Below, piece by piece: positions 4,358 to 8,791 of a DNA stretch of 64,000 nucleotides. The stretch is from NCBI GenBank assembly GCA_003247575.1, contig QJZC01000025.1, forward strand, positions 6,498-70,497, given 5' to 3'. How positions within the stretch are numbered: the first letter of the stretch is position 1; every line of letters begins with the position of its first letter. The notes beneath the pieces were generated by a model that did not search any database, was not told the DNA's origin, and saw only the letters and a program-made list of their open reading frames with translations. The stretch comes from Pseudomonadota bacterium. Lineage in GTDB: Bacteria; Myxococcota_A; UBA9160; SZUA-336. The position numbers and the translations under genes are program-made.

Positions 4358-4524
4358 GCGATCCCTCTGTCCACAAGCGAAGGCCCACCGCGCCTCGCGG
4401 ACGGCGCGAATGGACACGTACTCACCATCGTCGAATCTTTCACCTGACACTACGCCTCTCTTCGCATTCGAGCTGGATCCTGTCCACGTACGCTTCGGCG
4501 TCCCGAACCGCTCGATATCAACTT

Positions 4525-4800
4525 CTACGCTAGGCTACCCGCGAGGCTCCCCGGCCCCTGTAGCGGCTCCAATGCCCCCACGAGATCAGCGAGCCGTGCG
4601 ACGTCCAGTGAGGTCTCGAGGTCGAAGTGGACCACATGCTTGAAGCGGCCGGTGCGCTTCACTTGCCTGGCCAGAGTCGTCTTGCCGACCTGACGCGCTC
4701 TCACGACCGCCACCAGTGGAAGGCCCGTTGCAGCTTCTCGACTCGGGCCATTTCTGGAGGCAGCAACTCCATTTGTGAAATGCAGGAGTCTATCTCCTAA
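4525..4800 (-). pseudogene. N-terminal remnant (~90 codons) of an AAA_14/DUF4143-family ATPase. It is truncated after the Walker A region and has no proper start.
   Basis: 'LPLVAVVRARQVGKTTLARQV...HFDLETSLDVARLADLVGALEPLQG' matches the AAA_14 N-terminus (GPRQVGKTTL ... YFDLEDP..L). It is followed directly by a stop at 4525. The upstream frame opens after a TGA with no ATG/GTG/TTG before the P-loop. It abuts the GC drop of the island. Confidence 0.5.
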
Positions 4801-5096
4801 ATTTCAAAGAAAGCCGACCAGCTCCTGCCAGAACCTCACGGCCGACTTCAGCGTGGGAACAATCTCGGCGTCGGCACCTACCCTGGCTAGATGTAACAAC
4901 GTGGGTGGATTCAACAACGAGGATCTCGCAAACAGACTCCCCATCTCGAGAGTACAGGTCGGTCTGCGGCATCTGCCAAAAACTACGTCCATCGGAGCCT
5001 CAGTCGTGTGTATGATGAAAAAGTCGAGCCGGTCGTTCCATCCGGTCCGACGCCCAGAGCTTAGTCCCCCCTCAACTACGGTAGCAGGAGTCAAAA

Positions 5097-7292
5097 GTGG
5101 CAATCCTCGCGCTGAGTTCGGCCTGGGCAGGGCAACCTTCCGTTAGCCTACGAAGCCTAAGGGAATACCTGCTGGAGAATCTGCTCGCCGTCCTGCCCGA
5201 AGAAACACGCTCCGACTACTGCCTCATCCCCTATGTGCGTCATGTATTCGAAAGCCCGACGGACATCCCCGGGGGAGCCGGAGACAGGATCGGCATTCCG
5301 AATCGAGCGCCCACCCACTTCTGCTTTTCGGCAAGCGACGAAACCCTGCAATCCACGTTCGACACACGCATCGGTGAGTGCGCGATCAAGGGCTTCCGCA
5401 CCCTCCCATCGGTGCTCGACTCTCTCTATACCCCCAAGCAGCCCGACGCTCCCGCCCCGCTGAGCATCGCAATTACTCTGAGCTCGCCAGACGCCCCTAG
5501 TACCGACCGGAACCCTCCTCCTGGTGCGCCGCTCGATGCCCGGTTCCATGCCGAGCTGAGGATTCCCCGAAGCGGCGCCCTGGAGCAAGCATTGCGCGAT
5601 GTCAAGCAGATGTCCGATGTCGACGTATGGCACGGACTCTTCGATCCCAATCGAAGCTTGTACCAAAACCTGCACCTACACGCTCAGCAACTCTGCGAAG
5701 CTTTCGAGATCTCGCCAGGAATCATCGTTTATCAGTCCATCGTTGCGGCTATGTTCGATCAGATTCAAATCGCTTCCGTCTCTAGTAGCCTAGTGCACGC
5801 ACTGACGCTGTTCACTCGTTCGAGCGATCCTCTCAGCTTCGCAACTGGGGCGGTTCTCCTCTCAGCACACGCTGTTCGCAGCGGCGAGCGTCTCGAACTT
5901 GTCCGTATGCTGGAAGACGTGCACCAGAAGCTGTGCTCTCGTCCCGTCCGGCGGGATGTGCCGACGCCTGGTGTTCCTTCCTTCTCCGACACGGCCGCAC
6001 AGCAGATTCGCAAGCTTGAGGCGGTAGGTGAGCCGCCGGGCGATCAGCTGCGCGGCCCACCTTGGTCTATTTGCGAAACCATTCGCGATACGATGTGCAG
6101 ACTGGCGGGAATCGCAGAGGGAGACGATTCACTCGCGCGTCCGAGAACGCACGAAGGCGCGCGTCGCGACCCTATCGCGATGAGTGCGTTCCGGTTCCTT
6201 CATGCGTGCTCTGCCTTCTGCGACACGCGCTCGGAGGGAGTAGAGCTCGAATTCGGCTTCATGCTCGCGAACCCATTCTTGGTGCGGTATTGGCCAGGAG
6301 AGCGCCCCATTCCAATTGGCCGACTCAAGGACGGGGAGTATCAGCCGTTTCAGCTTTCTGCGCTATTGGGCCAGATTCCGGCGATCGAAAACCCGCGTCA
6401 ACGTTGCATCGCATTTCCCTACGGGGACACTCGCCTGGGAGACTCCAGGGCTCCATGTCCTGCCTATGTCATCAATCTCACTGACTTCCAGGAAGCGGTG
6501 GTCAGCTGGCCCGAGGGTAGGCTCTGGTCGTCGACTGGGGGAATCTATGCCTATCTCACCCATCACTATCCGTGGTCGATCGCGGCTCTCGTTGGTCCGG
6601 GATCACAAGTGCGTGTGTTCTGTGGCGGCCAGGTGGTCGCGTTTCGCGACGGGCGCGGTTGGCGATGTCGTGGCGACCCCGTTGCAGAATTCACCTCAGA
6701 AAAAATCTTGAGCGCTCGGGAAGCGAGACGCCTAGCACGCGCGCTGGAAGTCGCGAGTCAGCTCTCGCCGATCCTTAGAGCGACCGGTAGAGGCGGCCTG
6801 CTGGTCTACGCCGAGCAAAGGAGGTACCCCCCACCGAGTGGCTCGAACGGATCCCATGCCCAGGCTCCCCAGTCGGGCCTCTATCTACACACGCTTCATA
6901 ATGGCGAGCCTATGCGGCTCAACGGCCAACCCTGGCTCTCGGGCCGGAGCCTGCTCCGTCTTGACGCGGACTCGGAAGATTTCATCATCCGCTACGACGT
7001 AGCGCGCCTCTTGCTTCGCGCCGCCAAGATCGACGGGGCGGTATGCCTGAGCGAGGGAGCATCCGACGCCTACGACTGCCGGGTGCTCGACTTCGCCCAG
7101 TACCTGACGATCCACGATGCATCGGTTCCGATCTTCGATGCAGCCGGAGCGAAGCGGGCCACCGCTGAGAAGTTCACACAGTTTGCAGGCAGAGGAAGCT
7201 TCGCCATCGCGGTGTCGTCAGACGGCCCGATCAATGTCTACGTCGGAGGCGCCCGCTCCCCTAAACGGTGCTTCAATGAGGTCGTCAACTAA
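5097..7292 (+). CDS. Hypothetical 731-aa protein with a C-terminal divergent DisA_N/DAC (diadenylate-cyclase-like) domain; rest unknown
   Basis: GTG start with an AGGAG RBS 8 nt upstream. Residues ~612-722 align by eye to the DisA/CdaA DAC core: 'LLLRAAKIDGAVCLSEG' vs 'LYELAKMDGAIILSDSG' (DGA motif kept), and 'GAKRATAEKFTQFAGRGSFAIAVSSDGPINVYVGG' vs '[34 protein letters not shown]' (RHR replaced by KR-A). It lies in a ~55% GC island. Confidence 0.65.
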   Translation: MAILALSSAWAGQPSVSLRSLREYLLENLLAVLPEETRSDYCLIPYVRHVFESPTDIPGGAGDRIGIPNRAPTHFCFSASDETLQSTFDTRIGECAIKGFRTLPSVLDSLYTPKQPDAPAPLSIAITLSSPDAPSTDRNPPPGAPLDARFHAELRIPRSGALEQALRDVKQMSDVDVWHGLFDPNRSLYQNLHLHAQQLCEAFEISPGIIVYQSIVAAMFDQIQIASVSSSLVHALTLFTRSSDPLSFATGAVLLSAHAVRSGERLELVRMLEDVHQKLCSRPVRRDVPTPGVPSFSDTAAQQIRKLEAVGEPPGDQLRGPPWSICETIRDTMCRLAGIAEGDDSLARPRTHEGARRDPIAMSAFRFLHACSAFCDTRSEGVELEFGFMLANPFLVRYWPGERPIPIGRLKDGEYQPFQLSALLGQIPAIENPRQRCIAFPYGDTRLGDSRAPCPAYVINLTDFQEAVVSWPEGRLWSSTGGIYAYLTHHYPWSIAALVGPGSQVRVFCGGQVVAFRDGRGWRCRGDPVAEFTSEKILSAREARRLARALEVASQLSPILRATGRGGLLVYAEQRRYPPPSGSNGSHAQAPQSGLYLHTLHNGEPMRLNGQPWLSGRSLLRLDADSEDFIIRYDVARLLLRAAKIDGAVCLSEGASDAYDCRVLDFAQYLTIHDASVPIFDAAGAKRATAEKFTQFAGRGSFAIAVSSDGPINVYVGGARSPKRCFNEVVN

Positions 7293-7350
7293 CTCGTAGT
7301 GACGATCTCTTCGACTTACAAAGTAGCCTGTACGGAACGGAGATCGCAGA

Positions 7351-8475
7351 GTGACTCCCACCAAACCACCTCCCCAGAAAAAGAATGTCAGACGGACATC
7401 CAAGGGGAACGCAGCTTCCGGAGATGGACAAGAGCAGAAATGGATGACTCTGGAACAACAGAGTGACCTTCGGATCTTCATTAGCCACAAGGAGCAGAAC
7501 TCCGGGTACGCAGACGTGCTGTCACAGCATCTCAAGCTGTGGGGACTCGAAGGCGCCCAGATTATGCATACATCGGGCCCCAAGAGCCAAACGCAGGGTC
7601 CCGCGATCGGAGACGAACTGCTCGGCTTTCTGCGGGAGTTCCTGTGGGAATGCAACCTGGTCATCTACATCTACACCCACGCCAAGTTAAACTGGGAATG
7701 GTGCAACTATGAGCTGGGCGTAGCCGAGGATCGAAACACGCCAGCACGAATCGTGATCCTACAGATCTTCGAGGACGAACCCTCCGTACATCGTGATCTG
7801 CGCAGAATTCAGCTCGACAACGATCAAGACATACTGGACTTCGTGTTCGATTTTCATCGAATGCCGGATTTCTTCAAAGGTCTCCCAGGCTACTGGCAGC
7901 GCGACGACGAAACCCTGCGTCTCAATGCGAACGCGTTGATCGAAGCGCTCCGGGACGAGAAGGAGAAGGACCGCCTCGCCGAGGGGATCGAGCGAGAGGC
8001 CCGTTGGGGCTGTTTCCAACTGGGCATCGGCGGCGAGATTCTAGAACCCCTCCATGCTCGCTGGGACAAGGCTCTGACCGACGAGCGCGAGGCGATGCAG
8101 GAGGATCGGCGAGCGACGCTACGAGACAATCTCATCGTGACCGAGCGCGAGGGGTCCGGCCTCCACCACTTCGGGCTAGAGGGAGAAGGCAGCCGTATCC
8201 CCATCAAGCAACGATGGTCCGTCGGAAAGCTGGAATCGGAGTGGCGGAGCATCGTCCGGGTCCATCCTCAGGACTCCTGGCTGAACGAGCTACTCGACGA
8301 GATCTGGAGCTTTCTCGTCGGGCGGGCTAGACCGCTGCGGCTGAGGGGCTACCCCAGTGGTCAGCCTCACGTGTGCTTCGCTCCAGTGGTTACACATTGT
8401 GATCGGCACACCGATGGCAGTTGCGTGTTCAGTGTGGCGGTCTACACGTTTCGCGACGATCCCCCTATCGCATAG
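7351..8475 (+). CDS. TIR-domain protein (N-terminal TIR, C-terminal ~200-aa domain of unknown function)
   Basis: 'RIFISHKEQNSGYADVLSQHLKLWGL' (beta-A/alpha-A) and 'IGDELLGFLREFLWECNLVIYIYTHAKLNWEWCNYELGVAE' (the S..S.WC..E motif with the catalytic Glu at ~7711-7713) are diagnostic of bacterial TIR domains. GTG start at 7351 with a GGAG upstream. An alternative ATG at ~7444 sits just before the TIR. Confidence 0.7.
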   Translation: MTPTKPPPQKKNVRRTSKGNAASGDGQEQKWMTLEQQSDLRIFISHKEQNSGYADVLSQHLKLWGLEGAQIMHTSGPKSQTQGPAIGDELLGFLREFLWECNLVIYIYTHAKLNWEWCNYELGVAEDRNTPARIVILQIFEDEPSVHRDLRRIQLDNDQDILDFVFDFHRMPDFFKGLPGYWQRDDETLRLNANALIEALRDEKEKDRLAEGIEREARWGCFQLGIGGEILEPLHARWDKALTDEREAMQEDRRATLRDNLIVTEREGSGLHHFGLEGEGSRIPIKQRWSVGKLESEWRSIVRVHPQDSWLNELLDEIWSFLVGRARPLRLRGYPSGQPHVCFAPVVTHCDRHTDGSCVFSVAVYTFRDDPPIA

Positions 8476-8791
8476 GTCGTTCTCTACTCTCCGGTGAGGC
8501 TGGGAACGCACCCCGAGCCCCAGTCCGTGTGCCAATGGAGCGTGGAGAGTAGCTCACATGGTCGGCGCTCTCAGCTCGTTCCGTTCAAGGCACGTGGCGT
8601 TTGGCAACGGGGCACATCCCGGTGCGGGAGGATCGGACGGTTCTACAGTCGCCGGAGGACGGCGAAATCGATACCATCGGGCTCGACCGACGCCGTCGCT
8701 CCGCGATATCGCTCGCCCCATGTGATGCGGGAGCCGGCTGATCCCTCGGACTTTACTATCCGCTAGGCACGTTGGAGACCGCTGCTTCGCC

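Follow-up and report, generated by a model that had tools for sequence, protein, structure and literature searches.

The question raised by this locus is whether a multidomain protein of 731 amino acids (aa), encoded in a 64,000-nucleotide (nt) stretch of contig QJZC01000025.1 (positions 6,498 to 70,497; assembly GCA_003247575.1, a Pseudomonadota bacterium of GTDB lineage Myxococcota_A), generates a nucleotide signal or senses one. We refer to the whole stretch as the window. An earlier note, made by eye, had recognized in the C-terminal part of the protein a diadenylate cyclase (DAC) domain that retains the DGA motif of DisA and CdaA but has K-R-A in place of the phosphate-binding RHR motif, and had considered an altered product, a different substrate or a non-catalytic, nucleotide-sensing fold. 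Our analysis places the protein in a small, rare, unannotated and very divergent branch of the DAC superfamily and leads us to lean, with a confidence only a little above even, towards its being a sensor-regulated nucleotide cyclase, i.e. a generator of signal.

The relationship to known DACs escapes pairwise comparison. A phmmer search of the PDB returned no DAC protein, and in BLASTP the identity to 12 reference DACs was 23-31%, the E values lying between 4e-4 and 0.04 even in a 1.8-kb database; such E values are meaningless in a database of real size and the pairwise resemblance is not beyond chance. Once the family of the protein is in hand, however, homology is clear at the profile level. 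Scanned exhaustively with HMMER, 1.84 billion cluster representatives (clusters at 50% identity) yielded 58 relatives at E<=1e-3, 49 of them at E<=1e-30. When the PDB was searched with the profile built from the C-terminal 196 residues (alignment A3), T. maritima DisA came out best (E=1.6e-4), the top five matches all being DisA/DAC chains, and the full-length family profile also placed DisA/DAC first. A3 was further compared by hhalign with a separately built reference alignment, in which six DisA domains stand beside six from CdaA, CdaS or other DACs, all taken from annotated records; the two aligned with a probability of 95.6% (E=1.2e-8) over 72 columns running from the DGA motif to the end of the domain.

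The same conclusion comes from structure prediction. The AlphaFold2 model of the full-length protein, computed with a 48-sequence alignment, has a predicted local distance difference test score (pLDDT) of 85.4 and a predicted template modelling score (pTM) of 0.90, and that of residues 536-731 (alignment A3) a pLDDT of 88.9 and a pTM of 0.87. In the model, residues ~540-728 adopt a complete DAC fold, beginning with a helix (540-556) and the strand 'GGLLVY' and superposing on DisA over ~134 of 196 residues, at an identity of 16-23% to DisA, CdaA, CdaS and CdaM. Between 'GGLLVY' and the next strands lies a family-specific insert with a conserved EP.RL...WL.GR motif, in which W613 is invariant and within which the pLDDT drops at aa 585-590. 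The earlier note would have given up the DAC assignment had sensitive searches by profile or structure brought no significant match, and hhalign, the PDB profile search and the superposed model each provide one. Its by-eye alignment to DisA was reproduced in register by HMMER and hhalign, and the DisA strings used for that alignment are authentic B. subtilis DisA bar one residue (locus L018). The segment to which it had confined the domain, 6930-7262 on the forward strand, does translate to 'PWLSGRSLLRLDADSEDFIIRYDVARLLLRAAKIDGAVCLSEGAS...AAGAKRATAEKFTQFAGRGSFAIAVSSDGPINVYVGGARSP', corresponding to aa 612-722 of the open reading frame (ORF), but the actual fold is larger and begins some 70 residues upstream.

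Members of the family are mostly 650-890 aa long, and conservation in the HMMER scan extends chiefly over residues ~360-725. Those with a named source come from Longimicrobium, Planctomycetota, Myxococcales and metagenome-assembled genomes (MAGs) of Phycisphaeraceae, and every named entry is a 'hypothetical protein'. Word-indexed homologue searches brought back nothing beyond the query, whether started from the single protein or from the 48-sequence alignment; no family member was found in the viral contigs searched, and PADLOC and NCBIfam scans of the 731-aa protein gave no match. The family is presumably absent from the 22 DAC families described by Galperin (2023).

What has become of the active site can be judged from the motif columns of 48 aligned family members, read against what is known of characterized enzymes. 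In T. maritima DisA (TmDisA), D75 binds the metal, R108 contacts the ribose, and T107 and T111 contact the adenine. The residues D68, G69, G103 and R105 of EcPanS are the sole ones fully conserved in ~1200 curated DACs, D68 and R105 being the counterparts of TmDisA D75 and R108, and the D68A and R105A mutations abolish EcPanS activity; in M. tuberculosis DacA, changing RHR to AAA abolishes both ATP binding and activity. The DGA motif that the earlier note had reported is indeed retained, and in the family D646 and G647 are each found in 48/48 members and A648 in 44/48. The HMMER and hhalign register also bears out the K-R-A substitution, with K686, R687 and A688 placed on R108, H109 and R110 of TmDisA, and A685 and T689 taking the adenine-contacting positions T107 and T111. 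Although the substitution is real, it is not the oddity of one protein, as position 686 is Lys in 45 of the 48 members (94%) and Arg in the other three, so that a basic residue is found in all 48. Around it, G684 is invariant (48/48), position 685 is Thr in 41, Ser in five and Ala in two, position 687 is Arg in 34 and His in six, position 688 is variable, position 689 is Thr in 24 and Ala in 20, and A690 is kept in 46/48, giving a family-wide motif G-T-K-[R/H]-x-[T/A]-A. One of the three members with Arg at 686 reads GTRH. In the loop that follows, S707 (48/48) aligns with the conserved Ser of DisA 'AVS' and D709 (46/48) with the second Glu of the CdaA loop, the loop of the family being one residue shorter, and G710 and P711 are present in 48/48 and 44/48 members, respectively.

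Judged from these alignments, the real anomaly of the family is a conservative Arg-to-Lys change, fixed family-wide, at a residue thought to be universal: of RHR, only the first Arg is reported to be so, and two of the 12 reference DACs themselves have Leu at the third position. Lys and Arg interchange within the family, since three members carry the canonical Arg, and K-R-x is a selected trait of the family, neither decay nor a peculiarity of one protein. Every other core position is retained, as purifying selection on a functional site for nucleotide and metal would have it, and the near-invariance of the metal-binding Asp, the Gly, the phosphate-binding Ser and the acidic residue of the VS-x-D-G loop speaks for an active site that works and against a pseudo-enzyme confined to sensing. 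A separate case of motif variation was seen on a Bacillus velezensis plasmid (L027; NZ_CP076292.1, 170313-171116), whose annotated 'diadenylate cyclase' shows NGA for DGA and GSRHL for GTRHR.

We therefore propose, as a mechanism, that the site of the family still binds a nucleoside triphosphate and metal, and that two DAC domains paired head-to-head, the arrangement that DAC catalysis requires, would make a 3'3' cyclic dinucleotide. K-R-x would then be a lineage-specific solution for the contacts made by RHR and not a mark of lost function. The product expected by default would be cyclic di-AMP (c-di-AMP), because the adenine-contacting pair is Ala/Thr: EcPanS, which has G/A at these positions, makes cUA, and AbPanS, with A/T, solely c-di-AMP. 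The identity of the A685/T689 pair with that of AbPanS also leaves the altered product envisaged by the earlier note without positive evidence. Upstream of the cyclase, the N-terminal and middle domains may gate the pairing of the DAC domains on a ligand or a partner.

These upstream domains are themselves unusual. The N-terminal region is the probable site of a sensor fold resembling GAF or LuxR ligand-binding domains. The middle domain is characterized by the motifs FCDE..EGR.L.FG..LGNP, YAYLT.RYPW and VGPGS.IRVF..G.LVA.RDGKGW, and its residues G500, G511 and W522 are invariant in the family. A Pfam scan of aa 1-535, whole and in fragments at E<=10, gave no match of any kind, DACNG and DACNH included, and the middle domain matched nothing in the PDB, in Pfam or with the DAC profile. 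We considered whether the middle domain might be a degenerate second DAC of the DACNH kind, as the order of its helices and strands resembles that of a DAC and its hairpin 'VGPGSxIRVF' resembles 'VSSDGPIRVY'. Profile comparison does not support such homology: hhalign of the middle domain gave a probability of 1.4% (E=0.038) against the protein's own DAC domain and of 0.2% against the reference DACs. A weak trypsin-like match at aa 410-493 ('GDSRAP' versus 'GDSGGP', E 0.011) was likewise rejected, because the motif is not kept in the family and the profile of the region finds no protease.

Table 1. Features of the 731-aa protein, of its downstream neighbour in the window and of genes beside its relatives in other loci (L numbers).
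Feature	Sequence	Position (nt)	Strand	Remarks
731-aa multidomain protein gene	window	5097..7292	+	GTG start; from ORF list
N-terminal alpha/beta region, aa 1-350	window	5097..6146	+	variable across family
Middle domain, aa 355-535	window	6159..6701	+	best-conserved stretch of family; alignments A1, A4
Complete divergent DAC (DisA_N-type) fold, aa ~540-728	window	6714..7280	+	predicted
Family-specific insert in DAC fold, aa 573-617 (~45 residues)	window	6813..6947	+	alignment A3
DGA motif, D646-G647-A648	window	7032..7040	+	aligns with DGA of DisA; D646 = TmDisA D75
GAKRATA, G684..A690	window	7146..7166	+	replaces G-T-R-H-R-T/A-A; HMMER and hhalign register
VSSDGP loop	window	7212..7229	+	counterpart of DAC 'VSEETG'; aligned to CdaA 7l8n 'VVSEEtGAIS' and DAC profile
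TIR-domain gene, 374 aa from GTG 7351	window	7351..8475	+	database version 343 aa, ATG 7444 (M32)
Small winged helix-turn-helix (wHTH)-like gene	L004	2806-3123	-	L004, L005 and L006 genes mutually homologous, E<=1e-14
Small wHTH-like gene	L005	2245-2556	-	as for L004
Small wHTH-like gene	L006	3521-3778	-	as for L004
Small wHTH-like gene	L003	2932-3213		
Small wHTH-like gene	L007	3900-4175		
Small wHTH-like gene	L011	8423-8689		
Small wHTH-like gene	L013	8241-8525		
Amino-acid ABC transporter / DAC-family / PF14518 operon	L010	3789-8723		stop/start codons overlap
Amino-acid ABC transporter / DAC-family / PF14518 operon	L014	3-4956		stop/start codons overlap
Amino-acid ABC transporter / DAC-family / PF14518 operon	L015	941-6074		stop/start codons overlap

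In the window, the DAC-family gene is followed on the same strand by a gene for a TIR-domain protein (P0060), after a gap of 59 nt if the TIR gene starts at the GTG or of 151 nt if it starts at the ATG. The TIR domain is N-terminal; it matches Pfam TIR_2 just below the cut-off of 28 (24.7-27.7 bits, E=4e-6 to 3.5e-5), is listed as PF13676 among precomputed domains, and carries a 'WCNYELG' motif of the catalytic-Glu type (E121). In PADLOC the protein matches spbK (3.6e-8) and ThsB (4e-5). Its C-terminal ~210 aa contain no SAVED, STING or other nucleotide-binding domain detectable with Pfam, PADLOC or NCBIfam, and the word-indexed protein database holds no homologue of the protein beyond itself. 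The TIR gene could be either a partner of the DAC-family gene or an independent defence gene. Both lie in an islet (4451-8791) with a GC content of 0.60 (0.58 for the TIR gene, 0.58-0.61 for the genes) versus 0.646 for the whole window, and a GC content at third codon positions of 0.67-0.70 versus 0.72-0.80 in the neighbouring genes. No tRNA, obvious repeat boundary or informative promoter or terminator was found around the islet, and the genes flanking it are ordinary (DUF4886-like, HAD hydrolase, DUF1287, HEAT, Amt, kinase and SNF2). Upstream of the DAC-family gene is a gap of 650 nt, in which a 62-aa ORF (4525-4713, reverse strand) with a P-loop string 'RQVGKTTLA' resembles the N-terminus of a truncated AAA_14-type ATPase, i.e. 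a gene remnant.

To see what accompanies the family elsewhere, we examined 15 loci carrying relatives, ~13 of them independent. TIR genes are missing from all 15, as are homologues of the window's TIR protein and of its C-terminal domain. Defence genes adjoin family members in four of the ~13 independent loci: besides the TIR gene of the window, these are a type II CBASS (an anti-phage system that signals through cyclic oligonucleotides) in L013 (8561-13417; cyclase 3e-118, E1-E2 and a SAVED effector) in the vicinity of NERD, ArdC and integrase genes, a Gabija system in L014 (6342-10291; GajA 1.6e-97, and GajB) and a PDC-S31/DUF2971 gene in L010 (8790-9722). Integrase or transposase genes are found nearby in three family loci. 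An anti-phage signalling role is plausible, because the family is often embedded in such defence or mobile regions. Two other types of neighbour recur. A small wHTH-like gene of 85-105 aa stands directly downstream of the family gene in at least seven loci, and may encode a conserved partner or receptor. In two separate 50%-identity clusters, the family gene belongs to an operon with genes for an SBP_bac_3 protein, an ABC permease, an ABC ATPase and a heme-oxygenase-like PF14518 protein, the PF14518 proteins of these operons being 43% identical. Homologues of the small wHTH genes and of the PF14518 gene are absent from the window.

A number of observations weigh against the protein being a regulated cyclase with a role in defence. 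The Arg that is Lys here is reported to be 100% conserved in the ~1200 curated DACs, and its replacement may have impaired or altered catalysis. The window protein further departs from its own family in having Ala at 685, where 46/48 relatives have Thr or Ser (it is one of only two with Ala), and in a five-residue insertion, 'EGASD', after the DGA strand (aa 653-657, nt 7053-7067), which is found in 4/48 members. The Pfam DAC model (DisA_N, PF02457) finds no match in the full 731-aa protein, and the HMMER comparison with this model that the earlier note had proposed stays below the cut-off of 27 even in the one form in which it responds, the 111-aa fragment scanned alone (15.3 bits, E=0.015). 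Two of the 48 family members do attain E<=0.01 with the Pfam model, the best at 5e-5, which for its part speaks for homology. That the protein dimerises and is controlled by its N-terminal domains is something that we infer, and no receptor for a product was identified in the window. Lastly, the heterogeneous contexts of the relatives, which range from an ABC transporter operon to a planctomycete MAG copy that directly follows mreBCD, mean that a role in defence is not general in the family.

Some of these points would be accommodated if the DAC fold were a non-catalytic receptor, which binds a cyclic or linear nucleotide (c-di-AMP of the host, or an NAD-derived signal made by the TIR protein) and relays this to the other domains. 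Replacement of the universal Arg and the lack of conservation of the His and second Arg of RHR would fit a receptor, TIR is a type of enzyme that generates signals and is encoded 59 nt downstream, and degenerate DAC-like domains without catalytic residues (DACNH) have already been described. We nonetheless consider this account unlikely. Pseudo-enzymes usually lose their metal ligands first, whereas the metal-binding Asp and the Gly, Ser and loop Asp are invariant or nearly so in this family, and Lys and Arg interchange at 686; the absence of the TIR gene from all 15 other loci, moreover, means that sensing of a TIR product cannot be the function of the family. The TIR gene enters in a different way if it forms a single CBASS-like anti-phage system with the DAC-family gene, in which the DAC protein would sense infection and make a cyclic dinucleotide, the C-terminal domain of the TIR protein would bind this product and the TIR domain would deplete NAD+. 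The shared strand, the 59-151-nt gap, the common dip in GC, the order of an N-terminal TIR followed by a ~210-aa domain, as in TIR-SAVED and TIR-STING effectors, and the retained WC..EL catalytic-Glu motif all agree with such a system; DACs are known as synthases of defence signals, and a TIR-SAVED effector can read c-di-AMP. The pairing occurs at a single locus, however, the C-terminal half of the TIR protein has none of the nucleotide-binding domains sought with Pfam, PADLOC and NCBIfam, the TIR protein resembles SpbK, a self-contained sensor-effector, and the two genes could be mere neighbours in a defence islet, which makes the one-system account rather improbable in our view.

The contexts outside the window suggest another possibility, in which Planctomycetota, Myxococcota and Gemmatimonadota would use the family as their housekeeping or physiological c-di-AMP synthase, serving solute transport or cell-envelope homeostasis, and the nearby defence genes are coincidental. 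Canonical c-di-AMP biology is the control of osmolyte and K+ transport, with which the tight operon of ABC transporter, DAC-family and PF14518 genes in two separate clusters would be in keeping, as would the copy directly after mreBCD. Such a role is hard to reconcile with a family that is very rare and patchy (58 clusters among 1.84 billion representatives), whose neighbours vary widely and which has mobile-element genes close by and a low local GC content, and we find it highly improbable. The reading that we prefer remains that of a regulated cyclase. A more speculative extension of it, which we would call distinctly improbable, is that the family constitutes a third, cryptic class of defence-associated DACs, wired in the window to a TIR NADase effector as a 'DAC-TIR' pair, in which a Lys-type DAC would make a possibly non-canonical cyclic dinucleotide and the TIR protein would read it with its novel C-terminal domain.

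The involvement of DAC domains in phage defence was first shown in August 2026, in two preprints describing two classes, both of which were found via the Pfam signature. The present family escapes that signature and would thus be missed by signature-based surveys of defence DACs; enzymes that signal in the manner of c-di-AMP synthases are therefore not yet fully counted, above all in Planctomycetota, Myxococcota and Gemmatimonadota. Nature has, moreover, run an experiment in this family on the one Arg held to be invariant in DACs. Should Lys be able to support catalysis, a less strict definition of the DAC active site is needed; if it is not, the family would provide the first receptor-type DAC fold to keep its metal site. 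The conserved middle domain and the small wHTH and PF14518 genes that recur beside the family gene are new ground as well.

Compared to the classical enzymes DisA, CdaA, CdaS and CdaM, which have a canonical RHR and an SEETG or SRRR loop, the family has K-R-x, an SSDG loop one residue shorter and a ~45-residue insert with an invariant Trp; it also lacks the transmembrane domain, the DisA linker/HhH and the YojJ helices of known DACs. The TIR gene recalls CBASS with TIR effectors and Thoeris, in that it adjoins a gene for a nucleotide-signalling enzyme and its product matches the ThsB and SpbK models. A CD-NTase and ThsA (SIR2/Macro-SLOG) are lacking here, however, SAVED or STING domains cannot be recognised, and the pairing is not conserved. 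Thoeris is defined by ThsB together with ThsA, and the match of the TIR protein to ThsB is weak while the 731-aa protein corresponds to no PADLOC model.

There are parallels with two kinds of DAC already linked to defence. PanS, of the Panoptoo/PanDA system, is likewise a DAC recruited to phage defence, with variable base-contact positions, and the A/T pair of AbPanS is that of A685/T689. It differs in being a bare, constitutively active DAC of ~150 aa that acts with a Cap15-like 2TM-beta membrane effector, whereas the protein described here has 731 aa, predicted sensor domains and Lys for Arg; neither the window nor any of the 15 related loci was found to have a PanE-type 2TM-beta partner. 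CdaG/DS-2C (Galperin 2023, as cited in the two preprints) are proteins of ~550-575 aa with a DACNG-DACNH-DAC architecture, whose genes accompany those of a CD-NTase and of a CBASS effector, 2TM-beta or other, whereas members of our family reach 650-890 aa and have no Pfam match to DACNG or DACNH, and the neighbours in the window are the TIR, HAD hydrolase and DUF4886-like genes. DS-2C keeps the canonical DGA and RHR, passes the DAC signature and makes c-di-AMP in vitro, whereas the function of our family is one predicted from sequence. What the two share is a large cytoplasmic protein whose C-terminal DAC is preceded by a pair of uncharacterised domains, and an occurrence in defence islands; one family member, that of L013, directly adjoins a CBASS operon, the only one to do so among the loci examined.

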